This document shows positions 9,307-64,000 of a DNA stretch of 64,000 nucleotides, piece by piece (the first letter of the stretch is position 1; each line of letters begins with the position of its first letter). A program made the position numbers and the translations under genes. The notes under the pieces are model-generated. The model did not search any database. It had not been told where the DNA came from and saw only the letters and a list, made by a program, of their open reading frames with translations. The stretch is from Candidatus Omnitrophota bacterium (GTDB taxonomy: Bacteria > Omnitrophota > Gorgyraeia > Gygaellales > Profunditerraquicolaceae). The stretch spans positions 6,405 to 70,404 of the forward strand of contig JBAZJY010000005.1 of assembly GCA_041651115.1 (NCBI GenBank), in the 5' to 3' direction.

Positions 9307-9322
9307 CGCGGGTAAAGAAAAG

Positions 9323-10095: not shown

Positions 10096-10114
10096 CGGAT
10101 AAGGAGGTAGTAAA

Positions 10115-10507: not shown

Positions 10508-10548
10508 ACCGTACCGTAGATCAAAAAGTCATAGGGAGGTGAGCAATA

Positions 10549-11004: not shown

Positions 11005-11017
11005 TAAGGTGGAAAAA

Positions 11018-11209: not shown

Positions 11210-11221
11210 GGAGGTAGTAAA

Positions 11222-11581: not shown

Positions 11582-11603
11582 AAAATTAGGGAGGTGAGCA
11601 ATA

Positions 11604-12059: not shown

Positions 12060-12082
12060 GCAGCTAAAAACGGGACAGTGCA

Positions 12083-12764: not shown

Positions 12765-12771
12765 CCATAAA

Positions 12772-13584: not shown

Positions 13585-13585
13585 T

Positions 13586-15082: not shown

Positions 15083-15099
15083 TTAAAAGAGATGCTGCG

Positions 15100-16428: not shown

Positions 16429-16432
16429 AACT

Positions 16433-17284: not shown

Positions 17285-17601
17285 AAAAAAATAGCCAAAC
17301 AATATTGGATTATGTTATACTACTGCTGGTTGTGATTACTGCCTTGATGATCATGGGGCATTATGTGAGGAACAGCCTCTCCGGAAAAATGCGCGAAGGC
17401 GCAGATGTATTTTCGCAGGGAGAAGTTTACAGCAACGCGAATACGCACATAACGGAGAACACCATAACGAACGAGGGCGGGTCTATAGATATTGACCTTA
17501 GCGGCCTTGAAGGTCTTAATCTTACCGGCCTTGATTTCACTTGGCTCAACAACTGGACTTTATTTGATGTTGATTTTGGCGGCTGCCCGTTTTGTTGGTA
17601 A
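17281..17601 (+). CDS. Flp-type pilin paralog P13
   Basis: ATGA overlap with the upstream stop. MKKNSQTILDY plus VILLLVVITALMIMG. C-terminal GGCPFCW. Confidence 0.55.
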   Translation: MKKNSQTILDYVILLLVVITALMIMGHYVRNSLSGKMREGADVFSQGEVYSNANTHITENTITNEGGSIDIDLSGLEGLNLTGLDFTWLNNWTLFDVDFGGCPFCW

Positions 17602-17637
17602 GTAAGTCATAAGCCGGAAAATTAAAAAAACGGAATA

Positions 17638-18495: not shown

Positions 18496-19373
18496 TGCTC
18501 TATATAATTCTCGCCCTAATCGCAAGTTCAGTATTCCTAATTGTTTACGGAATTTTTGAAGCAAGGCAGGTGCCCCGGCTGCAGTTATTTAATAATATGC
18601 CGCGCCAGAAAAAAGGCGGCTTTGAAAGTATTAAAAAGTCAGCGGCTTACGGCCTGTTGTTGAGGCAAACCGGATTTATTACCCGGCCGTTATTAAAGCT
18701 GCCGTATTTTGTGAACTTGCAGGCGCAGGCAGACGTATTAAAGATAAACATTGACCTCCCCGCGTTTATTCTATTAAAGTTGATCGTGGGCGTCATTGTT
18801 TCTTTCTTAGTCTTTAGATTGCTGTCTCCGACCTATGCCATAATCGGCCTTTTGGTGGGGTTTTTCGTGCCGGATTTTTTTATGTGGAACAAAGTCAAAG
18901 AAAAGAAAGACGCCATTGTCAGGATCTTTCCGGAAACAGTTGACCTTTTGGACATGTGTATTAATGCCGGAGCGGATTTCCTTTCCGCTATTAAATGGGT
19001 GGTGGAAAAAAGCGACCCCAATCCATTTATTGAGCAGCTTTCTATTGTCTTAAGCGAGATCCAGGTTGGTAAAACCCGTTCGCAGGCGCTCAAGGACTTG
19101 GGCAACAGGCTCAAACTTCCCGATATCAGTAGTTTTGTGCGCACGATAATCCAATCGGAAAGAATGGGTACTTCCATTGAAGAGGCGTTCGGCAACATGT
19201 CCCAAGATACGCGCGAAAAGCGCTTCCAGTCCGGCGAGAGATATGCCATTAAGGCTTCGCTGAAGATCCTTTTCCCCTTGCTTTTTTGTATCCTGCCTGC
19301 TATATTAATCGTAGTTGCCGGCCCGGTTATTATTAAATTTACCTCGGGCGAGCTGATCCCCAAGAATTTCTAA
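18492..19373 (+). CDS. tadC: Tad pilus inner-membrane platform protein TadC (T2SS F-type domain)
   Basis: ATGA overlap with the tadB stop. T2SSF domain (TVDLLDMCINAGADFLSAIKWVV...SFVRTIIQSERMGTSIEEAF). TM helices at both ends. Confidence 0.75.
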   Translation: MMLYIILALIASSVFLIVYGIFEARQVPRLQLFNNMPRQKKGGFESIKKSAAYGLLLRQTGFITRPLLKLPYFVNLQAQADVLKINIDLPAFILLKLIVGVIVSFLVFRLLSPTYAIIGLLVGFFVPDFFMWNKVKEKKDAIVRIFPETVDLLDMCINAGADFLSAIKWVVEKSDPNPFIEQLSIVLSEIQVGKTRSQALKDLGNRLKLPDISSFVRTIIQSERMGTSIEEAFGNMSQDTREKRFQSGERYAIKASLKILFPLLFCILPAILIVVAGPVIIKFTSGELIPKNF

Positions 19374-29321: not shown

Positions 29322-29527
29322 CCCTTTTATTACCAATAAGTTTTAGCTCTCCTTAAGAAGAAAACGCTACCAAAAATCACCGACAAAATTCTTGACAACT
29401 ACTATATATATGTTATATTTAGAGTGTCATTCCTGAACAATATTACCGAATAGAAAAATGAAGTTCGGTTTTTATATTGCTACTTAATAATGAGTTTTAA
29501 AAAGTACCGCTAAAACTCACAAAAAAA

Positions 29528-32500
29528 ATGGAAAACCCGGCTAACAAAGCTGAAAGAAAAATGGGGGAAAGGGGGAATTTGTCGGTTCCCCTTTTCTATT
29601 TAGGTACTAATAAGAAACAAGAAAATCTTTCAGCGGTCGTTGATGAGCCACAATTTAAATCCAAGTTCAAAACCTGGATCAGAGTTGTGGCTTTTATTGT
29701 GGTCGCGGTATTCCTGCCGGAGCAGGTAGCGCAGGCAGTAGAATATGATTGGCGCGTGCTCTGGCAGAAGCCGGCGGCAATGGGCAATGCGTTTGCGCCT
29801 GCGTATTTGGCGGACACAAAGAACCTTGATATCCCTATTGCCGTAAGAAACATCCTCAAAGACGTTGCCGGCAAACCGATCACATCAATAAAAATTTCTC
29901 CTACGCTTACAGTTGACCTGCCCAAGCCACTGAATATTTCCAAACAAAGAATTGAAGAGATCTTTAATTGGCTACAGGGCAGGCCTTGCGGTTCCAAGGC
30001 GCTGTATGATCTATTAAGTTATGGCGGCGCCAAGGCAACAGAGCAGGATATTGCCGTATTCGCCCTGACCGTGGATATCTTAAGCGGTACAGTCAAGCCA
30101 GAGGGTAACCCGGAAATAATCAAAAATTCCCTCTACGCCTTAGCTAAAGCTTCCGAATTTTTCGGCGTTAAACTTTATCCGGCCAAGGTTAATAACCAAA
30201 CACCTAACACCCAGCACCTAACACCTTTTATTGTCCACTTGAGCAATGATCACTATGTTCTCGTTACCAACATCACTCCGGAAAAAGTTTATTATATTTC
30301 AAACCACAAAGAAGAATTCATCCCCACGGAGAAATTTAATGCCAGATTCACCGGCTATTGTTTGGTATCTGAGATAAAAGGCAGCCTTGAAGCAATAAGC
30401 GAAGAAGAGGCCAAGAAAATAAAAGGCGCCAGCGATTGGGGCGATAATTATAGCTATGACGCCGGCACTTATGGCTCCAACAGCTATTACACCAACAATT
30501 ATAGCAACAACTACAATTACAATAATTATAATTCCGGCTATACCGGATTTGATTACCGCCGCAATAATGCTAATCTTAATCTTAACCCGTTCGGCGTTAA
30601 CTTGACGTTAAACAACGGCTCAAGGCAGCAAGCCATACAGCAGGTCTGGGGTTTTGAAACCCGCTATAACCAGCCCAACACAAAAAATTATGCCAGTTTT
30701 TATACTAGCCTTAATAAGCCGATAACCGGCTATTATAAAGATAGCGGCAAGGGCCTTGTCTTAGACAAAGGCAAATTTGGCAATACCTGGCTTACTCCGG
30801 GAGGCAGCTCCATTTCTACCCCGATCACCGGTATTAACAATTGGCAGATCGGCAGCAATAGCGGGGCGGTAGCGTATAAGACAGCGAGCAAGGATTTTGC
30901 TAAATTTGACGACCGGATGACGGTTTGGGTAGGCTCAACGCCAAGCGCAGTATTTGCCCAGAGTTTGAATTTAAATAAAGAATCGTTCTACAAGAGTAAT
31001 TTTGAGACCGGCACAAATCTGCCCGTATGGCATTTTACGCCGATGATGAATACTTTCTTTAACCCGGAAGAGATCGGCAAGGCAGGCGCAGGTTATACTC
31101 CGCCGATCGGCGCTCCTTCGCCCGTAGCTTCACAGTTTTCCATTAATCCCGTAAAAGCAAGTAACGGCAGCGCCATAGGCGTAAAAGACGGATTTTTTGC
31201 CATGGGCGGCCTGAAAGATAAGCCATTCCAGATCAACCTTACCAATGCCGGTGTAACTATCAGGCCGGGCAGCACCATCGGGGTGAGTACAGATTATAAA
31301 AGTGTAGCCGGAAGCACAGCCGCATTTAATAAATATTTTATTCCCGGTCAGCAATTCAATCTTGAGTCCGGCGTTGAATCCCAATTCCATTTCCAACCGC
31401 AAGTGCAGTCAGGCAGATCCTTGGTGTTACAGCCGGGTAAAGGCGTTTTAAGCATGGCCAATACCGGCCGCGATGACGTGCGCTTTGTCGGCACCGGATA
31501 TCTGCAGGGTTTTGATAAGACGTACAGCGCTGCCATATTTACCCGCGAATTAAAAAAGGATAATTGGAAAATTGATTTTAAAGATGAGATGCCGACTTTA
31601 AGCAGCTTGAATAAAGCGGCGAAATCAGCCGGAGAATTACGCAGCCGCACCAGTGAAGGCTTTGAAAGAATAGCCAAGATCCAGAATTGGCATGGTCAGG
31701 ATGATGTCATTACGGGTTTTAGGGCGCAGGGCGACTGGGTCAGGCCGATCACAACTTTGCCCGGAGCTGCTGGTGAAGATAATAAGCGCTATGACAGCTG
31801 GGTAGGCGGCACAGGCACGATCGGCAACCTTGGTAAGGAAACCTTAGAGTTGCATAAGGCCCAGTTCAATATGGGCGTTACCAAAGACGGCCTTGATTTT
31901 ACGCCTACACTCTGGGGTAAATGGAATATCCGCGATAACGCGGTAAAGATCCAGGGTTTGAATTTCCGCGGAGAAAAACTCTTCAATGCCAAAGACGGAT
32001 TTTATTCCGACAGAAAATTAGATGTAGATATTTACGAGATCCTTGACCGCGACAGCCATGGCATTATTACCCGTGCCCCGCTTGTATCCGCAGCGAAATT
32101 AGCCACCTTTACTCCGAAGAGCGGATGGAAAGAGCTGCCGCGTTCGTCTGATACGCAATTCAAGTCAATAACTCAATATACACAGTCTCCTGATACCGGC
32201 GAACTGCAAACAATTAACCGTGCCCTTGGAACCTTGACTAAAGATAATAAGATCCTTATTGATAAAATTGTTTATAGCGCAGTGGAAGTTCCGGAAGCGC
32301 AACTGGGCGCGGACAAGGCAAGCCAGGCTGGCCTGAACGAAAAGCACCGCATTGCAGCTTGGAACACGAGCCTGTTCGCAGACAAGAAATATACATATTT
32401 TTCAGAAAGCGGAGATACTAAACTTCAGCACGCGGCGAACTTAACCTTAAAAATGACTGCGGATAAAAAATATCTCCAGGGCACAGGCCTGGATTATTCG

Positions 32501-35500: not shown

Positions 35501-38500
35501 AATAAAGAAGACCTCCGCAATATCAACAGCCTTTTTGTAGGACTAAAAGGTCGCATCAAAAACGGAACCTATATACATCAAGCGGAGTATTTAAATGCGT
35601 TGGCGTGTTCTCAAGCCAGGGCTTTTGAATACCTGCTTATTAATACTGACTTAGGCGCAAAAGGCATTATTCCTCTGGGTATCAGAGATAAGGCAGTTAC
35701 CGGAGGTAAAATAAATACTATCGCCACAGCCACGGTCTTGATTGCCGGCGGCACCGTTGCCAGCTTCTACAGCGCGGGCGCTGCCAGCCCCATAGCTGCT
35801 GCGGGCTTGACCATGCTTGCCGGAGCCCTCGGCGCTACCTCCTCGGAAGTTTTCAAATACGGCTTCAGAGGCGAACATCTTACGTTTAAAGAGGGAGCTA
35901 CTTCTTTTGTTTTTTCCGCGGCTCCCGGAGCATTAGGAAGATTAGGGGCCGGAGTTAAAGGCGCCGGAACGATAAAGACCATCGCCGATATCGCCGTTAA
36001 GGGAACCAGAAGCGGCTATGTTATTTATAATGCTTCTAACGCGCTGAATATCTACACTACAGGTAAACCGCTTAATTTTGCCCAAAGTGCAGGAGTTTTA
36101 GCGGCAAATTATCTTTTTACCGCGCCGTCTGCAATGGGAGGGATTTTCGGCAGCACCGGCAAAATAGCTACTAAGTATACCCAATTGATAACTAAGGTAG
36201 GTTTTGGTAGTCCCCGGCTTGGTAGGGTGATCGTTAACACGGCAACCAACCAGATTTTATTGCAAGGTACTTCGTTAGTAACCACGGGTAAATGGGCTGA
36301 CAGGAAGGTTACCTTGGGAGTTATTGGAGCCAGCATATTACCTTCAGTTTATATGCGCAGCAGCGGTATTGGCATTCTTCCGGGCATGGCGATTACCACT
36401 GCCGATACGGTTAAATATAAGATTACCCAAAAGAAAGACAAAGACGGTATTGGCCAGCACTTGACTTGGGGACAGATTAGTTTGATCGGCGGCGCGGCAA
36501 TGGTTCCGGGAATTTTAAAGAGAGGATTTACCGCATTAGAATCCAGACTTGGCACTATGACAGGAAAATTTGCCATACCCAAGATACCTGCCTTAGTAAC
36601 CGGGAAAACCGCGTCTTATGTTGCAAAGGCCGGGTTACATTCTCTTGCCGGCGCAGCGCTTTATCCTGCTTTTACTAAGGATAGATATACCGTAAAGAAT
36701 ATCGGTATTGGAGCGCTCGTAGGCTTAGGCGTTTGGGGCCTGCGTTTAGTCAATAACTGGGCAGGCAAAAAGCTTGAATCTTTGATCAGCCGCGCTACAA
36801 AAGCAAATGCCGAGCGCATAGATGTGGCAAATAGGCTGCTGAATAAGGTTGGCGTTCAGACAGCTGAAGAGGTAATTAAAGTACCGACAAACGCAAAAAG
36901 CTTTTTTGTAAATCAGGCTACATTCCTTACTACTTCTACTGTTTTTGCTTATTTAGAACAGAAAGACCCGCTCTACAATTCTTTTGGCACTGCCAGCGCA
37001 ATCAGCTCCGTACTTCTTAATCCGGGGAGAAATATACTTTCTACCATTTCCAACCTCGGCAGATATCTTGACAATAGAAAAGGCCTTGCCGATAAGGAAG
37101 AGGTAGAGGCGATCCTGGGCGATCGGTGGCAGGAATTCTTTAAAGAGGACAAAGATCTAGGAGGCAAATACGTCAGATTTAAAGAGAGCAGGTTTAAAGA
37201 CGCATTAAAAGATTATAATCTTGATTCCGACACTAAGCGTAAACTACGCACTCTTTGGACAAAGTCGGAAAGCGCATTATCTGCCCGGCTTGCATACATA
37301 CAAGGAAAAGAAAGAAACACTTTTAATGAACTTCTACGCAATGAAGTCGGCGGCATACCGTCGGCAATCCTTGCTTTTGGTTATTACGGTTTAGATACTT
37401 ATCTGCAGGCTTTTAGCGGCAGCTATACCATAAAGGCAGCAGCTAATTTCAAACAGACCGCGCAGGATTTCTTCTCTTTTGCCGATAAGACCAGAGAGGT
37501 GATTACCGAGATCCGGCAGACCTATGAGCTTCCCGACGATAAATGGGTGGAGGTTGGCATGCTTTTAGGAAGCGTGATGGGCGCAAAAAGAGGATATAGC
37601 GCCCTTGGCAATAAATTTAAAGGCATGGCAGCTGCTGATAAGAGCAAGTTCCTGCAGTTTGTTTCCAAGACCCATATTAATGCCGCTAATCTTACTTTTT
37701 TAAATACCGGTTTTGCCGTAGTTGCTCCTCTGTTGAATAAAGGCGCTGATTCAGAAGACTACTTAAGACAGATTTTTTACACTGCTTATGCTAAGGATTC
37801 GGTAATGGAGGGCGCAATGGGAGCAAGCTTGGTCTGGAATAGTTTTGCCGGCGCAGCGAATTTATTAACCAAGACCGGCGCAGGCAAGTCCATTAAAACT
37901 TATATGGATGGCCAGTATAAATTCAGGGTCATTGATACGCCTGTTACCGTCGGAAAGTCCACTACTCTCCTTAAGCCGGTGATCAAGGTTGGCGTCAAAT
38001 TTGGCACACCCGCGGCGCTAGTCGGCGTTGGCACAGGCACGTATCTTTTAGCCACAGAAAATAAATTTGTTGAAGAACGTCTTGATCCTACGGTACGCGC
38101 AGTGGTTGCTAATTTAGGCTTGATCACTGCTGCGGCAGGCTTAAGGCTTTTGACAAAAAGCATCAGCAATGTTAAGCAATTTAAGCAGTTAATGCGCGAA
38201 GGAAAGATTATGAGGCCTGAGAGGGTTGTATATAAACATAACGTTAAGGACTTATCGGCAATTAAATATAAACCCGGATCAGCTAACTGGTTTTTCGGCA
38301 CAGGCAATGAACATCTGCAAGGATGGAAAGCCTTCGGCCACCAGATGAAATATAACGCCATCTGGACCGGCGTAGGCACTGGCGCTGGTTTGGCGCTGCA
38401 TAGGATAAATGTTGCCCGCGGCAAAGCAGATAAGGATGACCGGCTGCTTTATATGGTATTGGGCGGATTATCAGGTATGGGTGCCAAGAATCTACCGGGC

Positions 38501-41500
38501 ATTACCCGTTTTGGCGCGCACGCCGCAGTTAATCTCGTGGATATAGCTGCTACCGGTGCTCTTGTTTACAGCGCTAAGAAACTTATCATTGACCCTGCCC
38601 TATCTAAGATAGAATCAAGATTTGATTATAATAATAAAGATTTTAGCTATGCAGAGATCGCCATGCCGCACGTTTTTGATAAACATTCCACCAATGAAAT
38701 TGAAACCGAGTTGGATAAGGATGCTTTAACAAGTGGCAACCTGCAGTCTAAGAAGAAAGAAGACCCCGCCGGCAAAGGCTATATTTACAAGAACGAACAG
38801 ACCAGCGATTGGGATTATATTTTACTTACCGGTTTGCTGGTTTCCTCTATATTTAAGGTAGGTAAAGTAGCTGCCAAGTCTTATAAAGGCCCTGACTTAA
38901 AAGATCCCAGAGGATGGAAGGGCATTTGGCAGGAAGGCTGGAACCAGGGCATCTTGCGCGCAGGTTTGGAAAAAGAAACCTTTAAAGCCAGCTTCTCCAA
39001 GTTCCAATTGTCCAATACTCTGGCTACCCCGGCGATTATGGCTGCCGGCGGCGGCGCTTTACTGATGGCAGGCAAGTCAAAAGAGATAGAAAAGACCCCC
39101 TGGGGTAAGTTGTTCAGGTACGCTGGTACAGGTTTATTAGCTTACGGCTCTTTAAAATTAGTGGACAGTTTAGGTGGTAACTTAAGCCCGCTTCAGATAC
39201 ACCGCTATGCTATGGAGAATTTAAGATTCGGCAAGCTTGGCGCAGTAGGCAAAGGCGCAGCTTCGGTGCTGGCCGCAGGCAAATGGGGAGTTTGGAACTT
39301 TGCCACCCGTGGCACTTTAGCAAACATGTTCACGGTAATCGCTCCTTTATACGGCGTGGTTGAGCTGGCTTCTTTGTTGACCAAACGGACAATAACTCCT
39401 TCCGCCTTTACCCAGACAGAAAAATCTTTCTGGAACGCCACCCTTGGCGCATTCTGGCGCGATGCCGAGTTCTATAGCACGGTTACCGGCGAGCGCGTGG
39501 GTTATGATCAAAGCGATAAGAGCTCGGTGATCCTCTTACCCGGCACCGGCAATGATTTAAAATACCGCAAGGTATTACTTGATGAAAAAGGCGAAAGTAA
39601 ATGGAAATCGCTTAACCTCTTCCAAAAGGCCGTGCTTTCCGGCAGGCTGGCAGAGATCTCTTATTGCACCGGTTTATTCGGCGTTGATCCGGAAACAGGC
39701 TTGCCCAAGATTGATTCTTTCCAGGATAGCCGCTTAAAGACTTTTAAGGGATTCTTTAAGGCAATTGATAAACAGAACCTGCAATTCTCCGCGATCTTAG
39801 CCGTGTTCCAGCCGATTGCCAATGCGATTTTCTCTAACATCAAGAACATTAACGCCATTGGCGTGAAGAACTTCGGCAGGAAATTCCAGGCTATTGGTAC
39901 GGGTATGGAAAATGTCTTTAGCGCCGATGTTGTCTTAGGTAAGTCTCCGCGTTTTGCCAAGTCAAACCCGCTTTCCGGAGGCCAGTTATTAAATATGGTA
40001 GTTACCGGCACAGTTGAAGAAACCATCACTGAACAGGGCATCCAGATGGGCTTAAGCCTGATTCCCTTTAATTTCTTAGGCCCGCGCACCGGCCCGTTAG
40101 TCAGCGAAGTATTGCAGGAAATCCTTTCACCTTTTGGCGCAGGTTCGCCCAATTATATGTATACTCGCAAAGAAGCGATCAATTTCAACAATCAGAAACT
40201 CGTGCAGTTTGCCGAGCAGATGCTTGGTAGCCAGATCTCTGACCAACAGCGCAAGCAGTTAAGCGATAGCATGGCTACCCTGCAGAATAAAAAATCAGAC
40301 AAGAAAGCGCAAAAAGCTGCAGCAGAAGCTATTGTTAAGGTAGGCGAGCAGACCGCCAGCCTGGGAGACGCCAGAAAGATCAAGGCTCATGCCAAGTCAT
40401 TGGGGCTCCTTCAGAATTTAAAATCAAACACCGCGGAGGCCGTGGGCGATTGCCTGCTGCCGGTTGCGGAGCAATACGGCAAAGAACTAAACCGCGAATT
40501 TGAAGGTAGGCTAAAGCTGGCTTTTGGCGATAAGATAAAGATAGCGCCGCTTAAGGCCATGGGTGTTAATAAACTAATTAATAAGCTAACCGGGTCTCCT
40601 ACTCCGGCGCAGTATAACCCGAACCCTAACGGTAAAGATTATATTACTTTTGATATCGGCCAGAATTTCCTCTTTACCACCGATGAAAAAGGCAACCACG
40701 AAATAAAGCCGAGCATCATTGCCGTTTATAACATCATCCACGAAAATATCCACGGTATAATTAATCATAACAAGGAGGACCTTGATACATTCAAGAATAG
40801 CGTAGAATTCAAGGAACGCATGGGCCAGATTGCTGACTTCTTAGGTTATAAAGGCGCGGATAAATTAAAGATGGTAGATCTGGATATCAGCGAATGGAAC
40901 CCCAATGAAATGCTTACCCAGTATTACAGCATGCTTATGCTCGCCAGTTATGTTATTGAAGGCAAGCAGAAATACGGCGAAGATTACGGTACCGAGAATA
41001 TGAAAGACCTGATTGAGCGTACCTTGAACAAACATTTTGACAGCTTTACCGACTCTATGCAGGCTTTATTTGATATGGGCGAGGCAGGTTACGTAAGAGA
41101 GGCCGATCCTTATATAGTTAACCCCGAGTTTATGTCTAATGTCATTGATTTTGTGCAGTGGACCAACGGTAACATTGCCGTGCCAAGGCCTTTGGTAGGC
41201 ATTCCTGATGATGACGAGGTGGATAAACAGATAATGGACCTGCTTAAGCTTTCAGCAGATAAGCAGGAAGAGTTGCGCAAGCTGGGCATTGAGCCCGGAG
41301 AGCGTATTACCAATGCCACATATAAGAAACTCCTTTCGCTGCCCGTTGAGTTCGCGGGTAGGGTTGATGCTATTTTTGAGAAAGGCACCGATCAATTAAA
41401 GGACTATTACCACAAACTGATCAAGAAGGACAACGCAGATACCCGTTTAAAGATCGTTTCCAGGCTTGCCCCGTTCTTTTTAATGCCGGCAGTGTACGGA

Positions 41501-47500: not shown

Positions 47501-50500
47501 ATCTACCCGGGCGATACGATTGTCTTTGAGCCTAATGCGGCAGTAGCCACCACAGTTGCCCCCGAAAACAAGCCTGTTGCTCCGGCGGTTGATTCAGCTA
47601 AGATAGAGGCCCAGAATAAAGCCAAACTTGAAGCCCAGAAAAAAGCTGAAGCGGAGAAGGCTAAAATCGAGGCTGAGAAAAGGGCTGAAGAACTCAAGAA
47701 GCAGCAGGCTTTGAAAGAGCAGGCCAGGCAGGACAGCATAGCCAGAGCAGATAGTATAGCCAATGCAAAAGCCGCACAGCAAGAACTGCTTCAGGAAGAG
47801 AAGCCGGCCGCTGATTCAGTAAATATCGCAGATTCCCTTGCCAATGATACCGTTTTAACCACGGTTGCCCAGGAGCCGGTTGATACTGTTTTACCTGCCC
47901 CTGCCCAGCTTCAGGCCAAGGTTGACGCCGGCTTATCCGCCAAGATTGACCTGTATTTATCCTATATTTTATGGCTGGTGCCGGTACTTCTTTTATTGGC
48001 CATTGCAAAGAGGATATTCGGCAGACGTAATATAACCAAAGTTGATCCAACAGAAAAGAAGATAGGACCCGTAGAAGAATCAAAGGATGAGGAAGAAGCC
48101 GAATTAAAAGCCCAGCAAATAGATGATGCTTGGAAGAAATTTGAAAAAGACAATAAGAAAAAGCTCAATAAAACCGCCAAAGAAACCAAGACCTCAAAAG
48201 CAGGCGATATGGATAAGGCTTGGGAAGATAAGGCAAGGGCTGAAGCAGATGAAAAGAGTAAGCTTGAACAGGAAATAGATGATTATGAGAGCGCCTCCGG
48301 CGTTAAAGAAATATGGGAAATGTTTAATGAAGCCGCGCCTGAGGAAAAGCAGGTAATTAATACCGCCAAGGCAGAAGCCTTGAAACAAGTTGGAGCGGCA
48401 TTAGAGAGCGCGGCGCAGAAGCTTAATGATAAAAAGGTTGATGAGTGTATAGCAGAATTAGAAGAACTTAGGGACAATCTCAAGGATATGCCTTTTGAAG
48501 AAGAGAGAAAGGCGGAGTTTATAAATGGTATAAATAACTCTTTGGCTTTGATAAAAAGAGATTTCAAGAAAACAGAAACTATTTCTAATAAAGATAATGC
48601 TACCAGTAAGGACAACACCGTTAAGCAGAATAAAGAAACCGGTAAAAAGATATTAAAGATCTTTAAGAAATTATTCACTCTTGTTGCGGTCATTGGTCTT
48701 ATTCTCGGTGCTTTCTACGCTGCCTATAGCTTTTTCCAGAATAATCGTTCTGCATTAGCAGGAGTTCCTGCTAATTCCGGCGATGTAACCAATAAGGTCA
48801 TAACCGTAGATAGCATCCCCAGCGTAAGCCTTACCTCATTTGAAGGCCTTGGAACGTTCACGTTTTTACCTGAAGAAGAGCTCAAAACCGGATTTGCATC
48901 AGAAGGCGATCAGGAAGAATTCTGGGCATTAGTCAACGGCGAAGTCGGCAGATACAAAGCTTCTATGGAGCGCCATAAGCAGACCAACGTGATCAACCGC
49001 ACTTATGCCGGCCGCCTGCAAGACCATGAGGTACTCTTTAATAACGCATTCAATAACCTCATTCGCGATAATAGGGCAATCTTCATTGATATAGGCCCGG
49101 GCGTAGGTAATGCAGAGGGCCCGACCACTTCCCTGGAAATTGCCAAGGCATTCTCCGGTTATGACTTTACGGTTGTGGCGCTTGACCTGCTCGAATCTGT
49201 AACGATGTTTAACGATGAAGTCAGCCCGGCAGTGCAGGAAAAATATCTAAGCCAATCAAACCTCTTTATTATCAGCGGAGACGGCCTTGAGCCGCTTAAA
49301 CAGCAGATAAATAGTCGGATTCCGGCAGTAGGTACCGATGATGTTGTGATCATCCGCGCTGCCAACTCCATAGACGTATACTTTGAGCGGCCGGTAATTG
49401 AAAAATGGCTTAGCAGCGTTGCCGAAGATTTCAGGGAACAGAAAGTAGTGCTCTTATTCAACCGGGCGATCCTCGTCAAAGACAATAACAGCCTGCAGTG
49501 GAATTTTACCGGAAAGGTTTCTTCAAGAGGCTTCAATCATAACAGCCGGGCAATAACGCCTTATGGCGCAGGGTATCCGGCTGCTTATGTTATCTTAAAT
49601 ACTACAAGCTCAAGCCCCTTAAAGGCCAGGAGCAAATTTAACGAATATCTTAAATACGGCCTGCTCATTCTGGCTTATATGAGTTATACGGGCTTGGCCC
49701 TTACCCTTTACAATAGCCTGCTTGTGGAATATATCGCCAGCCATATCTTGAACCTCTTGATTGTAAATTCAATCGTCGCCCTGCCGGTCGGCCCCTTAAG
49801 CAGCTATATCAACCAGAGCTATAAAGTGAATATTAAAAAGGAAACGCCGCGCATTGACCGCAGTAAGGTATTAAGCGTGCTTAAGGTATTTCCTTACTTT
49901 GTATTGATCTGGGGCACTCTCTGGTACGGCATTCTTCTGCCCATAATCCCCGCGGCAGCCATGCTTATCATTCCTGCGGTTTTCCTGGGGATTTACATAA
50001 AGCATTCCCGTGTTGGCATCTTCTCTGTAAAGGCGCTTAAGGCGACGCTTATCGCTGCTGCCGTCGGAACTTCAATATATCTGCTTATGCCTTTCATCCC
50101 GCATTATATTGCTACGGCAATGATCAACGAGCTGATCTGGTCTCCTTTATTATCTTACAGGCTGGCTTCCCTGCTTTTTAACTACCATGTGGAGAAGCGC
50201 ACGCTTAAACAGAGCCTCAAGAACGCTAGTAGCATAGGATATAAGATATACATTGTCACTCTTATCCCCTGGATATCCGTAATGTCCTTCGGCGCGATGT
50301 TTGAGCCTGTGACGACCTTTGTCATTGTTGAAGTAGCCACCCTTATTGAGAGTGTCTTCATACTTAGATGGATAGACGCGAATGAGATTAAAATATTTGA
50401 TTCGGTGGCCGGAAAGCTAAAAGGCATTACCAGCCGCCGCGGCGCGGTCATGACGACCGTTACTACCAGCTCGCCGGTTGAAGCGGAGCAGTTATTTAAG

Positions 50501-53500
50501 ATAGCTGAAGCTGCTGTAGGCAAGGAGAATATGGCGATCATTGAAAAGGCCCAGGCGGTTGCCGCGGCAGTGCATGCTTCCAAAAAAGATAAAGCAGCTG
50601 TTCAGGAAAGCCTTGAACTGGCTGCTATATTGATTGAGATTTCAGGCAGTATTTTTGCCGCGGATGGAGATAAAAAGGCCTATGCTCAGCTTATTGCCGC
50701 ATCTCTGATGTTCGGCCTTCCTTCCCAGAGTATAGAGGCGTCATTCGGCAAACAGGGCAAGGATATCGCCAAATTAGTAAATAAAATAAAGTTTGCCGTC
50801 TCTACCACCGCCTACGAACATAACAGTAAAGATAATTACCATCTGAATAAGTTTAAAAATATGATCAAGGATATCCTTGATACCACCGAAGAAGTAATGC
50901 TTTACTTTGCAGTCAGGATGCTTGAGCTGAAAATTTCAGAAGATATCACCAGCCTCAAGAATGAGGAATTCATTTATGTGGTTGCCGCCATTGCCTACGA
51001 TTACCATCTCAAGGAATTGGGAAATGAAATCCGCAAGCAGTCGCTGATGAAATTCAGCCCGCAATCATGCACGGATATTTCCACGAAGATAGAAGAAGCA
51101 ACCGGGATGGATGAAGAGACCTCAAAGGTTTACATCGGTTATCTTATTGAGCAGCTCAAAAAGGAACTGGCAGCGCAGGGAGTAAACGTTGCCAAATTTG
51201 AGTTCTCCGGCAGGCGTAAGGATTTTGTGAGCACCCTTGAGAAGATAAATGATCGGGATTATGAGTTTGAAGCAATATCTGACCTTTTCGCCCTCAGAAT
51301 AGTTACGAGGGATGAAGACAGGTGTTGGGAGGCCTTCAGCAAATTAAGGGCTGCCCTGCAGGAAGAAGATTCGCTATTAGGGCAGGAAAATTCCGAGGAT
51401 TTTGATGATTATATCTCCAAGCCCAGAGGCGGCTATCAGGCCTTGCACGGCTCAATATGGCACCCTATCAATAAAACCCTTATCCCCGATACGTTAAAAG
51501 ATGCGATTTACGGAGAAGGCAATATTGTCGGAGTAGAAGTGCAGATCCGTACTGAAAAAATGGATAAAATTGCTAAAACCGTCCTTGCCGACCATGAACG
51601 CAAGGCAGAAAATAGCGGGCATAAGCATTATGATTATGCCTTTATGCGCGAGGCAGGAGAGAGTTTAGCCCAGAACATCGCTGCGGTCAAGGAGCAGATC
51701 TGGTTTGGCGACGAAGAGCATAAGTGGGGCAAATCGGTATTCGTGAATGTTTCCCGTAAGGGTAAAGAGGAGAGGATTTTTGTCATACCGGTGAGCGAAA
51801 ACGGGCCTACAGTTGTGGACGCGCTTAGCCACCGCCGTTCAGCGTTTGAGGCTATTCCGAATAACCTGCGTTTGAGCCTGGTATTACGCGACCGCGATAC
51901 GGAAACCGAAAAAACAGTAAAGATTATTGTAGACTCAAGCGGAAAAAACCTTGGCATTTCCTATTTGGGATATGTCTTGCGCAGCGGAGACCGCGTTAAT
52001 ATAGAATTTAGCGAACCTTATAAGAAGGGCCAGGGAGTTTCCAATCTACCTGCCAAATTCCTGCAGTATGCGACTACCTACCGGGCAAAGGTGCTTGCGG
52101 TTGCGGTAGATGAAAATAAGAGAAAAGACCTGATCAATAGCGGCCGGCAGATCCTGAATTCAAAGAAAAACGGGATATTCCTGTCTGATCCGAATATACG
52201 CAGCTACCTGGAGTTAATTACCCGCAATCTCTATCCCTTAAGAGCAGAGTCATGGTCTGATGAATTAAGCATTGCCATTGCCGCCGGTATTATTGATGTG
52301 GCAGAGGTAAAATCCATTATTGACCAGATGCAGGCAAAGATCAACGTTGTTTTTGACAGCGCGCGCAAAACTTCCAGCTCGCCGGTTTCCACTATTATTG
52401 ATATAGCTGTGGAATTATTAAGATTTGGTTCCGTGGATTTAATGGTGGGCCAGAGAAAATTATCAGTTAATCTGGCTTCAGAATCAAGTTTGGGCAACAT
52501 AGAGAAAATACTCTTGCAGTTGTATTCAGGCGCCGGACGCATCGGCTTCAGATATTTTACCGTTAACCCGAATACCAGAGAAGCCATTGCAGATGATACG
52601 CTGTATTGCGGAGAAGAAAAGGTCGGCATACAAATAATTCATAATGAACAGCATAGCGGATTGGCCTTATTCCTTACCAATCTTTCAAGGGCCATTGCTG
52701 CTTTAAAGAATTCCACAGTTTTTATCGTTAAGCGCGTTGACTACGAATACCACATCCATAACGCTTTTCAGTCAGTTAATACAAGAGAGGCCGGGCCGTT
52801 AGAGATGGTCCTTAGGAAAGCCGGCTTCGTTGCCTTAGAAGAAAAGGCAGAGACAGTATCCATACCGCGCCATCATTCTAGGGATACAAAGGCATTATCG
52901 CTTTCGATGGTGTGTAACCTTAAACAGCCCATTGTTGGCTCAACGATCAAGGTAGCTGAAACCTGGGGCGAAGGCAATATAGTCGCGAGGGAGTATTTGC
53001 CGGAAATTATCGGCCGTAACACCAGCTCGCCGCTTGAGGCAGTCAAATTCGGCGCGGTGGTGGCTGGTGGATTGATCGTATCTAGTCCGATAGAGATAAT
53101 TTTAATAAGCAAAGATGGTAAGCGAGAGGCGTTGGAGGTTAATTTCCCGGCCATCCCTTCTGATATGCCAACCCAAAAGCAGCTTATTAAGCGGGCATTA
53201 TTAGAAAACCATGGAACAATGCCGCGTTATTCCCGCCACTCATATATTCAGCCTGAGCCTATAAGGCGCCCTTTTGGGACCTACCGGAAAGTTTGTGGAA
53301 ATAGCAAGATAAATTCAGATGGTTCAATACTGGACGATATTCTTAGCGATAAGATGAAATCATTTTTCTCTTGGCTGGCGGGTATGGATACGCTTACCGC
53401 AGCCGCAATGTTGGTCCTTGTGCCTGCCATAAAGCTTGTGGATGGACTTTGCAGCCTGGGAGAAAAGATATTCTTTGCCATAGCCAATGCGCTTTACAAG

Positions 53501-56500
53501 CCTAGTGCCATGAAATACAGGGTTCAGCGCTTCTTTTCGGGATTGTCACACTTAGACGAACTGACCGCAGCCGCAATGCTGGTTCTTGTGCCTGCCATAA
53601 AGCTTGTGGATGGACTTTGCAGCCTGGGAGAAAAGATATTCTTTGCCATAGCCAACGCCTTTTACAAACCCAGCGCCCTGAAATACAAAATCCAGAATTT
53701 CTTCTCTAGCTTTAGCGGTATGGATGAGCTTACCGCAGCCGCAATGTTGGTCCTTGTGCCGTTTATATCATTATTAGATAAAATCGCAAATGCGGGCGAA
53801 AGGATATTAGATGTAATTGATATCCGCGGTAAAGTTAATGCATTTAAACTTAACACAGAACGTTTTCTTTTAGGCTTAGCAAATACAGATGTATTAACTG
53901 CGGTTGGAATGATTATCTTAGCGGTTCCTATGTATTTGATGAATAAACTATGGCTAAAGAGAGTTAGGTTGGCTGTTTTTGGTCTGACTTTTATGACTCT
54001 TGCTTCTTCATTCACGATCCCTTCAGAGGCAGCAATACTTGATAATAAAGTTGCGAAATTGAATACAATAAAGGCAAAAGCTTTTGAAGACGGTAAACTT
54101 GATTATAAAGAAGTTATTAAAATAGATGAAGCTTACGAAAATGTATTAGAAAAAGAAATAGCCGCGTTAGGATGGGAAGCAGGAGCCAGCGCGCGTAAAG
54201 AAAAGATAAAAGAGATTACCGGACAAATTAAGAATGAAAAAGACGCAAATAAGCTTACGGAACTTAAGAAAGAATTGCTCCAGCTTTATAAATTGCAGCT
54301 AATATATTATCAGGATAAGGTGGAATTGGAATCACGGAAGATGGCCGAGCTTAGCGAAAAGAACAAAAAGAAGCATAGCGACCGGATTGAAGAGAAAATC
54401 AATGAGAAGATAGACAATATTGCTGATGCGACAAAAGAGCTTAAGGATACCTATAATGAACAGTGGCCGATGTTAAAAGAAGTCATCGCTGAAGTAGAGC
54501 CTAATGTTAAAACAGCCGAAGATATAGCATTTTTACAGGATTTATATAGGATGGCCGTAGATAACCGCAGCTTTGTCTTAAAAAGCCTGGATGAATCGAG
54601 CAAAGAACAAGCCATAGTAAAACAAGAATTAGATTATTATTCCAGCAAGATCCCGGAATATAAAGAGAGCAGAGAAATTGCGGATAGCCAGGAAAAGTCC
54701 GAAGCTACAAATACACCTAATATGGCCGATACCCAAATAGCGGGAACAGAGAATAAGGCTTATAAGCCGGAAGGTAAAATTGAAGAAATTAATAAGGTTA
54801 TTGAAGCAATAAATGATAAAACATTAGAAATCGTAGCGGATATGGCCAAGAAAGAAACGGCTTTTGAAGGGTTGGAATATTATTGGCAGATTATTAAGGC
54901 GGCTGAAGAAAATAATGAAAATGGCAGATTTGATACCCAGATAGCCGAAATCAGGAAACTGTATGATCTTGCCCGCATTTTAGAAGGATATAACCGTAAG
55001 GATGCTGATATAAGCTATTCTACCCGTATCAATCTTATTGATTTTATGTTCCTTAACCGCGCAGCCGGCACTGAAGACACCTATTTGGATATGTTAAAGG
55101 GTACAGATACACTCTTGGCAGATGATATTAATGAAGCGGTTTTGGCAGTAGAGCTTAATGCAGTGCCCTTACTTAAAGATATACGGCTGTATGAAAACGC
55201 AACTGTTACGATTAACAAACAGATAAAAACTTCCAATGATGCACTAGCTAAGGCAGATGCTGATGCGAAAGATATTTATCAGAGCCTTATTGAAGAAAAT
55301 ACCAAGCTCGTAAATATATTTACCGATTTGACTAAAGTTTTAAGAGAAAGATTAAATCTTAGCGACAAGTATAAAACGATTCAAACCGGCAGCAAGGGAG
55401 AAAGGATTGTTGTTATTGCATTGCCCCCGGAAGAAGAGGATAAGCTTAATGATGCGGAAAATAAGTTTAAGCAAGAAATCAATGCCATAAGCGCAAAAGG
55501 TAAAGTTTTAGGAGAAGCTGCCAAATTATATCAGGAGCGTAAAGGTGAGAGAGACACGGATAAGATCAAGCTGATAGATTTGAAGATCAGTTTAGTTAGA
55601 AAACAATTGGCAGGCGCAGTTTTACTTGATAAAAACATCCAGGCTGCTTTACAGGAAGTCAACAATACGCCCAACAGAGAAAGGCCGGCGTTAATTGAAA
55701 AGAAGATTTCAGGGCTTAAGGGGCTGGATTTGGGGTATAAGAATGATTTTAGCGAGATGCTGAATATCAGCCGCCAGATCAGTGAGCAGGAGAAGAAAAT
55801 AGCTGATAAGCAGGGCTTAGAGGAAAAATTAGCTCAAGCCGGCGCAAATAATAAGGAGTCCGAAATTAACGCGGAAGCTGCCGATGAATCGACCAAGAAA
55901 TCAGCCAAGGCAGTAGTAAAACTTTTCTTGGAAAAATTAGGCGTTCCGGAATTAAACGATACAATTGATGCTAATGCTTGGGATAATCTTAACACGCTTG
56001 AACAGTGGCTCGCGGAAAACGTCTTTATCGGCACATTAAAGGATGCGGATGCTAACGAGCTCTTGGGAATTGCCCTTTCGGCAATATACCGGACAACAAT
56101 ATCTCTTAAAGAGATCAGGGGCCAGCCAATGGGCGCTATAGAGATAAAGTATGAGTATCGTCGGGAAGAGATAGCCGGCAAAAGCAGCACCGATAACAAT
56201 ATGTCTATTTTCTACTTTGTCGGCGGCATACGCGTGAGCGAAAAATCACTTTCTTTTGTCGGTGGCGTGAATTTGGGCGGGGAGCTGGATAATATTGGCC
56301 GTTCCATTGCGGAAATGTTCAAAAAGACAATTACTCGCAAAGACCTGATTTCTTTACAGGAAGAGATCGGCAATAAGATCACCAGCAAGATTGAAGAAAT
56401 AGAAAAAGCAAGAATTGATATCATTGCTGCGGCGCGGAAGGTGCAGTTGATTGACGCAAGAGAAAAGAACGGAGAGATTCTTCCTTACAGCCGCCAGGAA

Positions 56501-59500
56501 GCAGAGTTGGATTTACTTGCGGCGCAGGAAAATTACTATAAGGTTACTGAAAATTATTTTGGCAAAGACAAAGGCCAGTATGTAGCTATTGACCGTGGTA
56601 ATTGGACCATAAAGATTAAAGATATTAACATAGAAATTGACGATGATAAGGCTGTGAAAAAAGCATTAACAGACTTAATGAGAGAAGATTTGAATAATGT
56701 GCAGAAAGGCCTTGAGGATTATCTTAATAATAATTTAGCGCGCTACCGCGTGCCTAAGGCTCATGTAGGTTTCATCAGCCGCACCCTTTCCCATATTTTT
56801 GTTAATCTCGGCGCTACCTTTACCGGCGTAAGGATCCAGCAGGGTTTGGTTGTAAGCTGGACCTTATGGGATGGGGGACGCAAGTTTGAAGAAGCCCTGA
56901 AGCTATTGGAAGACGGAGGAAAAGTATTACAGATTGAGCAGGAAATCGCGGAGTTAGATGCTTTGATTATTGAGTTCAACGGTTTTTATGAGGCCGCAGG
57001 TGACAATGATATAGAAAAGAAATACTACAGCCTTTACGCCGCTATTACGTTGGAGGCTCATCGGGATATGCTTCGTGATGAACTGAAGCAGGACACTAAG
57101 GGCATGCTTAAAGCTCCCAGAGCTAAAAATCACACCAAGACCGATAAAAATATCCCAGCCACCACTAATTTTAGCACTGTTTCGGAGCCGGCAGATGATG
57201 ATATTCTCGTTGACTACGCGGAAGGGGTTATTGATGGATTTGTCGCTAAGAAGACCTTGTCCGTAGATTGCACCATTGTCGCTAATGATGCTCCGGCAGG
57301 CAGGATCAGCGAAGCTAATAGCACTAACTGGAGGCTTTATGAAAGAGGGAATATCGCAGATGAAGCTGGAAAGACTGCGGAAGAGAAGATCAAAGAAGCC
57401 GGAAATGAACTTTGGAAGAATGCCACGCAGAGTAGCAGGGTGATATCGGATAAGCAGGAATTATTTATTCTTGCTGAAAGTTTCAGCCGCTATACGATGG
57501 TTAATTTTGACGTAATCAAGGCCTGGTTTGAGGCTAAGGCCGATCAGTTATCAGCAGAAGAAAGCTGGATAAAGGCCAAAATAGAAGCTTTAGCTGAAAT
57601 GAGGCTGGAGCAGTTAGACTCAAGAAGGCAGAAATTATTAAAAGAGAAATTTGATCTTGCGGCAGAAGGAAAAGATATTACAGCGGTTGAAACCAAACTA
57701 GGGCTAATAGAAACAGAAGCAATGGCCATAAACGCTGGTTGGAAAACTAATGCGGATCAGGAAAAGGCAATAAAAGACGCCCTGACGGAGCAATTCAAGC
57801 AGAAGTGGGATGCCTGGTTTAGCCCGGCAAGCAAGAATGGCAAATTAGATAAGTTCAGTGATGAGTTAAAAAGAATAATCCAGCCGGAGCTGGATAAGTA
57901 TAGTAATATTTTTGATTTATTATCTGAAATAGTAACAACCGGTAAGCTCGCCGGAAAAGACGTCCGTCCAGAACTCATAAAGGAAGTTTACCGGTTGTTA
58001 AGCGCAGTATTGGTAGATCTTTCCGGAACAATAAGGTTGGTAGGTGCGGTTGAGGTGGAGATTAATGGCGTAAAGACAACCATTGACAACAGCATATTAA
58101 GCCAGAAGCAAGCGGACCTGCAGAAATCCTATTCTACAAGAGAAACTGATAGAATTAATGCGCTAAAGAAATATAACGATGAGAAAGACAAGCTCATAAC
58201 CGACATCCTCGTAAATACCAAAGACAGCAAGTCCAAGAAAAATACAAACCAGAAGTCTGCGGATATCTTAATTTCTGAATGGAATGATTTATTTAAAAAG
58301 AATGCTCAATACTTTAACTCAACAGATGGCGATTACGAGCTTCAGTTGATCAGTACCTATGAAGATATTTTTAGCAAGCAATTAAACGCCTCAAACCTGA
58401 AGAATAAATCTCCTCCGTCCGTAGATGATTTCAACGCCGCCGTTAATACATTCTATTCCGCGTATGACAAATTAAACGATGATAATAAATCCAAGATCAA
58501 TAGTATTTTAAGAGTATTTACCCACCCCAAGAATAACGCTCAGCTCGATCTCTCTGACGGTTTAAATGACGATGATCGTTATATACTTGGCTATAGAAGC
58601 GGCCTCATTTATGGTGACAATGGTAAAATCATAAACGATTTTGATATCCTCATGCAGTCATTTATTGCCGTCTACGATCATCTTAATAAAGGTGCCTTTA
58701 ACCATCCTTACGAAAGAATAGATTATCTGGAAGAGTTCATAGCTTCCGCATATCCTGCCTACAGTAGAAAAGTAACAGTTTCCTTAGTAAATGTCCTCGG
58801 CGTGCTGCAATACAGCGAAGGCAAAGAAGTATCACCCGAATATAGAGAATTTCTCCAAAATTCCGTTAAAGCGCTGGTAGTTTTAAGCGGAGATATTTTT
58901 GAAATAGATCTCACTAAAGATACCAAATTTGACCGCCAGCTTAGCCGCAGGCTTGAAGACATCAAGAAACGTTTTCAAACTTCTATAGATGAAGCCGCAC
59001 TTCCTTACAGCCTGATCCAGATAGAAAAAGCCATAAAAGTGGCAGCTGCTGATCCCAGCCTTGACCAGAGTTTTGTCCAAGAATTGGAAAGCCTGCGCCA
59101 GCAATATGTCAGCCAGTATATGAATTATGCCCTTGCTGCGCAGCGTTCTTATCTGAAATTCTTAGCCAATAATCCCCGCGCAATTAATGTAAGCATAGCT
59201 TCAGATTACACTATGTGCGCCATACTCTTGGCTTATTCCGGATTATCCATGGCCCTGCCGCAAAAGGATAATAAGCAGGAAATAAATGCCTATCTTAACG
59301 TCGTAAAGCAGACCGTTGAGAAGCTGATGCCGCCGAAAGCCACTCCTACTTCAGATGACCATCTTTATTACGATCATGAGGGATTATATATCAGGACCAT
59401 CGTAATAAGGAATGGCCAGCCCTTAGAGAAATATTTGACTCCTGATGAATACCTTGAACTGTTAATGAGGAACATAATTTATCAGGATAACAACTTTATC

Positions 59501-64000: not shown

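Follow-up and report, generated by a model that had tools for sequence, protein, structure and literature searches.

We analysed a window of 64,000 nucleotides (nt) from a Candidatus Omnitrophota bacterium (GenBank assembly GCA_041651115.1, contig JBAZJY010000005.1, positions 6,405 to 70,404 of the forward strand; nucleotide positions below are those of the window). It carries a giant open reading frame (ORF) that is still open at the right-hand edge and lies downstream of an operon resembling those of Tad pili and type II secretion systems. A six-frame scan shows frame +2 to be free of stop codons from 29501 to 64000, a run of 11,500 codons, the runner-up in all six frames being an ORF of 2,517 codons at 21556-29109. 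The first ATG of the giant ORF is at 29528, exactly 11,491 codons from the window edge, in agreement with a first-pass annotation made from the sequence alone, which had described an uninterrupted ORF of over 34 kb, open at the edge. The features of the giant gene, with positions in its product in amino acids (aa), are these:

29528..64000, + strand: giant ORF, 11,491 codons, open at the window edge (ORF scan and position of the first ATG)
29645..30430, + strand: conserved N-terminal module, aa 40-301 (Pfam, AlphaFold2 (AF2), Foldseek)
29669..29737, + strand: hydrophobic segment aa 48-70, WIRVVAFIVVAVFLPEQVAQA, AxA-terminated (hydropathy and conservation in 206 members)
29987-29989 and 30251-30253, + strand: Cys154 and His242 of the C39 fold (~aa 139-289), inside the module
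30395..30430, + strand: leader-like double-glycine-type motif, aa 290-301, ISEEEAKKIKGA, directly after the C39 domain
37313..40675, + strand: collinear conserved block, aa 2596-3716 (comparison with other giant ORFs)
45203..45283, + strand: internal twin-arginine (Tat)-like SRRNFIK plus hydrophobic segment, aa 5226-5252, first of the transmembrane cluster (TIGR01409)
45227..50365, + strand: predicted transmembrane cluster, aa 5234-6946, at least eight hydrophobic segments (hydropathy heuristics)
50477..51637, + strand: predicted RelA/SpoT N-terminal region, aa 6984-7370 (Pfam, NCBIfam, PDB)
53360..53977, + strand: three to four tandem 56-aa repeats, aa 7945-8150 (phmmer against PDB)
54125..58027, + strand: charged region rich in helix-forming residues, aa 8200-9500 (proxy measures)

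Stop codons make up ~5.8% of random codons at the base composition of the window, and by our own arithmetic the probability of 11,500 stop-free codons is ~e^-687, so that a chance origin of the ORF is excluded. With a codon-usage log-likelihood model derived from those Tad genes in the window that have Pfam support, the giant frame scored positive in all 22 consecutive 1.5-kb segments, at 0.13-0.37 bits per codon (0.27-0.46 for the reference genes), and therefore no part of it is merely open by luck. The other two frames scored negative and contain 25-64 stops per 500 codons. Stop-codon recoding was rejected, as none of the three stop codons occurs in frame and the neighbouring genes terminate normally. 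A contig of the European Nucleotide Archive (ENA), ERZ27247363:k141_3079565 (53,314 bp), located via the 2,515-aa protein encoded next to the giant gene, is 100% identical to window positions 11609-39109. The giant gene called on it has the identical start and 11,798 residues and is cut by the contig end 922 nt past the window; the frame thus remains open for at least 307 more codons. The last 52 nt of the window have no match in GTDB genomes or JGI metagenomes. The earlier statement that this is a real giant gene and no product of chance is therefore upheld; extending the contig, which the same annotation had proposed as a check, lengthened the frame and stopped short of the stop codon and the downstream genes.

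The N-terminal module opens with the hydrophobic segment at aa 48-70, which has positive charges on its N-terminal side, as in Sec signal peptides, and ends in A/S-x-A. Among the 206 distinct family members on which all our conservation counts are based, W50 is kept in 186, P64 in 188 and A70 in 190. The segment is probably a Sec signal peptide, with a predicted cleavage site, or a signal anchor, its N-terminus lying inside, and the flanking charges together with the conserved AxA place the sequence after aa 70 outside by prediction. It is followed by a Peptidase C39 domain (PF03412, 33.5 bits against a Pfam cut-off of 22). An AF2 model of the module built with 16 homologues has a predicted local distance difference test score (pLDDT) of 80-92 in its core, and its best structural matches in Foldseek are LahT150 (E 7e-6), PCAT1, the ComA PEP domain and the HlyB C39-like domain, with TM-scores of ~0.7. 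Each of the two catalytic residues, Cys154 and His242, is retained in 204 of the 206 relatives. We note that cysteine is rare in the giant protein, the near-invariant Cys154 being one of only 19 among 11,491 residues (0.17%).

Directly after the C39 domain comes a motif resembling the leaders that such peptidases recognise. Counting residue 301 as position -1, it reads L(-12) S/T(-11) x x E(-8) A(-7) x x I/V(-4) x G(-2) A(-1), and the family consensus at the module boundary is L-S-x-x-E-A-x-x-I/V-x-G-A. An aliphatic residue (L/I/V) is found at 290 in 202 of the 206 members, E/Q at 294 in 165, I/V at 298 in 201 and Gly300 in 200, the last being nearly as conserved as the catalytic Cys and His; A/S at 295 and A/G/S at 301 are kept as well. 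The consensus for leaders of peptidase-containing ATP-binding cassette (ABC) transporters (PCATs) is L(-12)xxxE(-8)L(-7)xxxxG(-2)G(-1), in which a helix spanning positions -10 to -4 docks on the peptidase (PMC6959990). In our AF2 model a helix occupies aa 292-297 (-10 to -5), and the model is confident as far as residue 300 (pLDDT 90) and drops to 41 at residue 301. The giant protein has two strict matches to the leader motif, starting at aa 290 and aa 2312, against 0.1 expected.

Family similarity ends at this motif. The first 1,200 aa of the giant protein gave 47 protein matches, nearly all annotated as partial C39-domain proteins of Candidatus Omnitrophota, and identity to these ~47 proteins is 50-67% over aa 40-301, where similarity stops; 26 of the 47 alignments end exactly at residue 301, and one protein alone continues, at 35% identity, to aa 1053. 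Scanning species-representative genomes with a degenerate pattern derived from the module alignment yielded 79 loci, most of them in Omnitrophota-labelled metagenome-assembled genomes and about a quarter under other labels, mainly 'uncultured Planctomycetales'. In 73 of these the ORF led by the module runs off the fetched locus without a stop, at up to ~3,600 codons. In four of the six closed loci it goes on in another frame, and locus L031 has the module alone in a 409-aa ORF, with a second ORF of 2,384 aa after it. When 1.84 billion cluster representatives were searched exhaustively with a profile, 167 proteins matched at E<=1e-30, with the module N-terminal and lengths of up to 7,821 aa, a maximum that reflects the limits set by contig ends. 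Judged by the labels of homologues and loci, the giant gene belongs to an Omnitrophota genome, and the type of lineage named in the first-pass annotation is borne out. In the alignments the boundary of family conservation coincides exactly with the leader-like site, which is the new point of this analysis: neither giant-gene preprint (West-Roberts et al. 2023; Nielsen & Lui 2026) mentions a glycine motif, leader or cleavage site, and none of the papers in the literature collection searched links Omnitrophota giants with 'double glycine'.

Beyond the first 300 aa the sequence evolves fast, and the nearest relative is only ~35% identical. The body of the protein was searched with two offset Pfam tilings over all 11,491 aa and with single tilings of aa 1-10,000 for NCBIfam and PHROGs. 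No recognisable domain was found in aa ~350-5200 by these libraries or by PDB sequence searches; PHROGs gave zero matches over its whole range, and the sole additions from NCBIfam were the Rel and Tat-signal matches described below. Other giant ORFs have collinear counterparts of the blocks at about aa 1970-2270 and 2460-3716, and a core at aa 2938-3549 is common to four long relatives (P0124, P0125, P0134 and P0061). A profile of this core has no PDB or Pfam match, and an AF2 model of aa 2920-3570 made with five sequences reached a pLDDT of 31 and was discarded. A word-indexed search with aa 2580-3720 returned no match, although relatives are present in the fetched loci, and a metagenome scan with the block at aa 2584-3716 gave 525 pattern matches and no relatives. 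Two HExxH motifs lie in hydrophobic, helix-like contexts, at aa 3738 (40739-40753, IIHENIHGII) and aa 11049 (62672-62686, IAHELLHNAS), with 0.1 expected by chance. Neither has Pfam support or a PDB sequence match in its surroundings and neither is conserved in relatives, and a metalloprotease reading was dropped.

The transmembrane cluster begins with SRRNFIK, a near-perfect twin-arginine motif, and its hydrophobic segment, which together score 17.4 bits against a TIGR01409 cut-off of 16.7 (Pfam TAT_signal, E 0.003-0.008). This may be a plain transmembrane segment with positive-inside charges or the mark of an internally exported piece. Hydropathy supports the internal transmembrane blocks that the first reading had reported. 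The same reading's 'long coiled-coil and low-complexity stretches' were overstated: sequence entropy is high along the whole protein (3.7-4.15 bits per 200 aa), low complexity is clear in one piece only, a linker at ~aa 302-345 rich in N, Y, S and G, and a strict heptad proxy flags 165 aa in total, with three heptad-like segments at aa 8417-8981 in the charged region. Self-BLAST of the 11,491 aa finds three short repeat pairs only, and from this near absence of self-similarity and the high complexity it follows that the protein is not a repetitive adhesin. Segments with clear folds, also claimed, number only three to four in 11,491 aa.

One of these directly follows the transmembrane cluster. 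Residues 6984-7370 match RelA_SpoT (PF04607, E 4e-16, 59.8 bits against a cut-off of 27) and TIGR00691 (E 3e-18), and their PDB matches are Rel and RelA structures. The synthetase motifs are intact (GRRKD, DLFALRIV, DYISKPRGGYQALH and EVQIRT). The hydrolase half is degenerate, the HD dipeptide being replaced by FG and the other metal-binding positions lost (HD_4, E 0.03), and the combination points to a RelA-like, synthetase-only module. An inactive hydrolase half is also found in E. coli RelA. The region resembles long RelA/SpoT homologues, such as Rel and RelA, in that a pseudo-HD half and a synthetase align over ~330 residues, and differs from them in that no TGS, ACT or other ribosome-sensing C-terminal domain is found downstream (Pfam, NCBIfam), the Rel alignment stopping after the synthetase. 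By these motifs aa 6984-7370 is a predicted RelA-like alarmone synthetase domain. The searches gave a single close relative, a 709-aa Omnitrophota fragment at 37% identity.

Downstream, the tandem repeats at aa 7945-8150 match PDB entry 5i8l (phmmer E 9e-11), with 27-30% identity per repeat. This entry is titled 'Lysozyme', and we take it, from the repeat sequence, to be Cpl-7. In tandem arrangement, length and identity the repeats tentatively resemble the CW_7 cell-wall-binding repeats of that protein; they differ in having a 56-aa unit that includes a hydrophobic stretch, and peptidoglycan binding is putative. Hydrophobic peaks at aa 7950-8130 had been considered as transmembrane segments, and were reassigned to the CW_7-like repeats and are probably not membrane-spanning.

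The genes and elements upstream of the giant gene include the following:

600..19373, + strand: Tad/type II secretion system-like operon (library scans of window ORFs)
21562..29109, + strand: 2,515-aa gene, co-oriented with the giant gene (ORF scan)
29392..29419, + strand: best sigma-70-like promoter match of the region (TTGACA, 16-nt spacer, TATATT, extended -10 TG; consensus match)
6603-6738, 19371-19506, 20640-20697, 21205-21274, 21383-21452 and 29199-29335, intergenic: copies of a palindromic element

The operon encodes, in order, a Rotamase_2 peptidyl-prolyl isomerase (PPIase), RcpC/CpaB, a secretin with a TonB_C tail, a ParA-like/T2SSE fusion, DUF192, several Flp-type (GQSxxEY) pilin and TadE/G-like genes, TadB, and TadC, which ends at 19373. 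It thus has the RcpC, secretin, TadZ/CpaE-like component and TadA/CpaF ATPase, TadB, TadC, Flp-type pilins and TadE/F/G pseudopilins of a Tad system; the prepilin peptidase TadV/CpaA (Peptidase_A24) was not found among the scanned ORFs of the window and may lie elsewhere in the genome. TadB/TadC homologues are present upstream on the same strand in 38 of the 47 related loci that have at least 6 kb of upstream sequence. The giant gene had been placed 'immediately downstream' of the Tad locus; it is downstream, although not immediately so, because four genes intervene after TadC: two PsbP-like genes, one minus-strand gene and the 2,515-aa gene, the last co-oriented with the giant gene as described earlier. 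The 2,515-aa protein begins with a sequence resembling a signal peptide (…ISPAFA|REG), matches no Pfam domain and is not similar to the giant protein, and only weak relatives (25-32% identity) are encoded upstream of the giant ORF in four of the 79 loci. Its gene seems to have been inserted, in this lineage specifically, between the operon and the giant ORF. The promoter-like site sits ~110 nt 5' of the giant ATG, and sites of this kind are not enriched relative to shuffled sequence.

The PsbP-like genes are tandem paralogues (178 and 176 aa, 19488-20601) with sub-threshold matches to the PsbP fold, and homologues lie upstream of giant genes in three related loci (L005, L024 and L031). PsbP/MOG1-like domains are among the fusion partners of the immunity family Imm-SuFu in a survey of polymorphic toxins (PMC3482391). 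The minus-strand gene at 20692-21102, the sole clearly supported one on that strand in the window, belongs to the '23S rRNA-intervening sequence protein' family (PF05635, E 2e-17) and has copies of the palindromic element on either side. This element, of ~135 nt, consists of GGTTA/GGTTAAGG-like units around a GCCGGTATGG core and occurs in five or six copies, all intergenic. One copy separates the 2,515-aa gene from the giant gene, and the segment 29195-29340 folds as a long hairpin (-55.5 kcal/mol, z -7.7). No Rfam family matches the element, which resembles repetitive extragenic palindromic or miniature inverted-repeat transposable elements and may act as a terminator or stabilise transcripts.

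Within the pilin region, positions 9826-12059 hold a tandemly duplicated ~1.1-kb cassette (88-98% nt identity) containing a small Flp-type pilin gene (GQSILEY), a TadE-like gene and a gene for a 151-aa pseudopilin-like protein, and the public short-read assembly splits exactly there, into contigs k141_1204789 and k141_3079565. The ORF at 9176-9841 encodes a pilin-like protein with a Cys-rich C-terminus and contains a 12-nt tandem repeat (9637-9780, ~9 copies) specifying (T/D-G-G-N/D)n. Public contig L081 (ENA k141_1204789) departs from the window at position 9712, consistent with variation in repeat copy number. Positions 1-6453 of that contig, which precede the window start and lie 5' of the PPIase gene, encode a DsbA-like thioredoxin and a divergent set of FIST sensor, HisKA kinase and GGDEF response regulator, and these may regulate the Tad/giant locus. 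Window positions 179-253 hold a tRNA gene.

Giant membrane-protein genes beside pilus or secretion operons in Omnitrophota, which are tiny and probably predatory bacteria, have been described in three studies: West-Roberts et al. 2023 (bioRxiv 10.1101/2023.11.21.568195), Seymour et al. 2023 (PMC10066038) and Nielsen & Lui 2026 (bioRxiv 10.64898/2026.06.07.730766). The type protein is the 39,678-aa ORF of Velamenicoccus archaeovorus. Of 116 Velamenicoccia species genomes, 74 were reported to have Tad complexes and 77 to have ORFs >20 kb (Seymour et al., PMC10066038). The West-Roberts set was confined to ORFs >90,000 bp (30,000 aa), and its full-length members have C39 domains near signal peptides at their N-termini (West-Roberts et al., bioRxiv 10.1101/2023.11.21.568195). 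The published locus preceding giant genes comprises a Rotamase_2 PPIase, rcpC, gspD, gspE, gspF and genes with class III signal peptides. The catalogue of Nielsen & Lui holds 916 proteins with 10,000 aa or more, the longest having 147,155 aa, and includes a 24-member PF03412 architecture cluster; secretion or pilus genes flank 13 of the 14 largest giants (bioRxiv 10.64898/2026.06.07.730766). The gene described here is a single ORF above the 10,000-aa threshold of this catalogue, with 11,491 codons in the window and 11,798 on the ENA contig.

It shares with these giants its lineage, its size of over 10,000 aa, an N-terminal C39 domain beside a signal peptide, numerous predicted transmembrane segments (the N-terminal one and, by heuristics, at least eight at aa 5234-6946), few annotatable domains and poor conservation. 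It is likewise preceded by a Rotamase_2 PPIase, RcpC, a secretin, a GspE-like ATPase, two GspF/TadBC genes and numerous class III signal-peptide genes. As both the kind of gene and its neighbourhood match published descriptions, the giant gene belongs to an already described kind; the instance is highly divergent, and the kind of object is not new. In contrast to the 'Archaeovorin' subclass, which is marked by glycosyl hydrolases and transferases, methyltransferases, peptidases and NUDIX domains, the C39 domain is the sole one of these types found in the 11,491 aa (Pfam over the full length, NCBIfam over aa 1-10,000), and in contrast to the 'Dockerin-type' subclass there are no dockerin or TSP3 matches in Pfam and almost no internal repeats. 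Two further differences are the RelA-like synthetase and the gene for a putatively secreted protein of 2,515 aa that separates the operon from the giant ORF. The term 'ppGpp' appears in neither giant-gene preprint, and PF04607 is unlisted by Nielsen & Lui.

We consider it likely that the locus is the 5' part, its first 34.5 kb, of a C39-led Omnitrophota giant gene, the conserved partner downstream of a Tad/type II-like secretion operon, with a general role associated with the cell envelope. The cell-envelope-spanning or exported mega-protein proposed in the first-pass annotation is thus retained in this form, envelope association being the best reading. The simplest reading that the front end suggests is a signal peptide, an exported C39 peptidase and that peptidase's own cleavage site, at which the variable body would be released. 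That the conserved ~300 aa form a self-cleaving export-and-release cassette, cut in cis after Gly300-Ala301, is a tentative proposal, to which we would give somewhat less than even weight. Its comparison with PCATs and the related ABC transporter maturation and secretion proteins (PCAT1, ComA, LahT; PMC6959990, PMC6363468) shows a shared fold, retention of the catalytic Cys and His, and a leader with the same spacing of L(-12), E(-8), a hydrophobic residue (-4), G(-2) and a small residue (-1) and a predicted helix from -10 to -5. The differences are that the domain in the giant protein is not fused to an ABC transporter and, following a signal peptide, is predicted to lie outside the cytoplasm, and that the leader-like site is in cis and C-terminal to the protease, whereas theirs is N-terminal on a separate small substrate.

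In the mechanism that we propose, the N-terminus of the giant protein would be exported by Sec, and the C39 domain would then cut after Gly300-Ala301, in cis or between copies, parting the conserved cassette from the variable body. The body would stay in the inner membrane through the transmembrane cluster, with large extracytoplasmic parts, and at least one of its cytoplasmic loops would carry the alarmone synthetase. The giant protein would be produced and handled jointly with the Tad-like machine encoded next to it, and the two may act together when the envelopes of host or prey cells are contacted or attacked, as earlier work has proposed for this class.

Several observations weigh against parts of this picture. 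The basis for a possible role in host or prey contact is gene context and a hypothesis from the literature. Canonical C39 domains act in the cytoplasm, whereas that of the giant protein is predicted outside the membrane. The expected triad has Asp/Asn ~16 residues after the His, and an oxyanion Gln ahead of the Cys; here the third position, occupied by Asp, Glu or Asn in 181 of the 206 relatives, is Ser258, with Asn259 adjacent, and no conserved oxyanion Gln is assignable before Cys154 among family members. Position -7 of the leader-like site is Ala, and Ala/Ser in the family, as against Leu in the PCAT consensus. The topology is contradictory, because the N-terminal signal puts aa 302-5233 outside and the charges of SRRNFIK, on the N-terminal side of the first cluster segment, would place the same residues in the cytoplasm. 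The Pfam CW_7 model (PF08230) misses the repeats at aa 7945-8150 even at E<=10, and for this reason the likeness to CW_7 is kept tentative. A divergent SecA_DEAD or SecA preprotein-binding domain is present in most full-length Omnitrophota giants; none is found in the 11,491 aa with the two Pfam tilings, although it could lie beyond the window, and the glycosyl hydrolase and dockerin domains of many giants are likewise absent from the 11,491 aa in Pfam searches. The 3' end of the gene lies beyond both the window and k141_3079565.

The best-surviving alternative, which we nonetheless think unlikely, is that the frame is real and does not yield one mega-protein, being instead a polyprotein cut at many sites or a source of products from internal starts, one of them from the Tat-like signal at ~aa 5226. 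It is compatible with the envelope reading, the two not being mutually exclusive. A protease is built into the N-terminus, SRRNFIK and its hydrophobic segment score above the TIGR01409 cut-off, the module and what follows it are separate ORFs at L031, and cleavage into smaller polypeptides was raised as a possibility by West-Roberts et al. (bioRxiv 10.1101/2023.11.21.568195). On the other hand, only one further strict double-glycine-type site exists, at aa 2312, no Met or other obvious start stands just ahead of the Tat-like motif, and published proteomics peptides of V. archaeovorus map to its giant ORF, although this does not settle processing.

Standing behind it, and improbable in our view, is the explanation that the protein is no surface weapon or adhesin and serves mainly in the cytoplasm, as an inner-membrane-anchored scaffold for signalling or metabolic functions, with the Tad neighbourhood reflecting co-regulation only. 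The RelA-like synthetase needs cytoplasmic nucleotides, the charges at the first cluster segment favour a cytoplasmic aa 302-5233, and among catalogued giants 46% are 'TM-only' and many have multi-enzyme architectures (Nielsen & Lui, bioRxiv 10.64898/2026.06.07.730766). These points are countered by the N-terminal segment, whose charges and conserved AxA predict that the following sequence is outside, by the resemblance of the repeats at aa 7945-8150 to a cell-wall-binding module, and by the tight, conserved synteny with a secretin-containing operon.

Far less credible is an assembly artefact, in which the long frame would be a chimera of genes or genomes or a consensus hiding frameshifts or stops. 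The sequence comes from a metagenome, the short-read contigs of this population in public archives are interrupted at the pseudopilin duplication and again ~0.9 kb beyond the window, and frame changes occur inside the giant ORFs of four related loci. Against this, codon usage is gene-like in one frame throughout, with frequent stops in the others, and a random join would almost never stay stop-free. Tetranucleotide composition is even along the ORF (r 0.88-0.93), and the only long nucleotide repeat inside it, a 168-nt tandem at 53363-53760, leaves none able to mislead an assembler. The blocks at aa 40-301, ~1970-2270 and 2460-3716 are in frame and collinear with other giant ORFs, the domains at aa 6984-7370 and 7945-8150 are also in frame, and frames open for more than 3,000 codons are found in 73 of the 79 relatives too. 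A conventional repetitive adhesin, repeats-in-toxin (RTX) protein or nonribosomal peptide/polyketide megasynthase, which size alone would suggest, can be dismissed at the sensitivity of the libraries used, given the three short repeat pairs and the lack of any adhesin, RTX, condensation, adenylation or ketosynthase domain in either Pfam tiling, in NCBIfam over aa 1-10,000 or in PHROGs.

Returning to the giant protein as an envelope-associated member of the C39-led class, giant genes account for a sizeable share of small Omnitrophota genomes, and this window adds one instance. The additions made by this analysis are modest: a double-glycine-type site in cis, a RelA-like domain embedded in the giant protein, and repeats resembling those of Cpl-7. 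The RelA-like synthetase hints that envelope events may be coupled to alarmone signalling, or that a nucleotide pyrophosphokinase may form part of a payload. A cassette kept in more than 200 relatives, with its boundary at a putative protease recognition site, offers a concrete and testable handle. If the proposal holds, a C39 peptidase would operate beyond the cytoplasm and independently of any ABC transporter, its substrate exceeding 11,000 aa, and the cassette would resemble polymorphic toxins in joining a constant delivery part to a variable payload. Cleavage after Gly300-Ala301, if it occurs, would be the first defined processing step for this class of giant genes, and would fix the border between the 'constant' and the 'variable' part.

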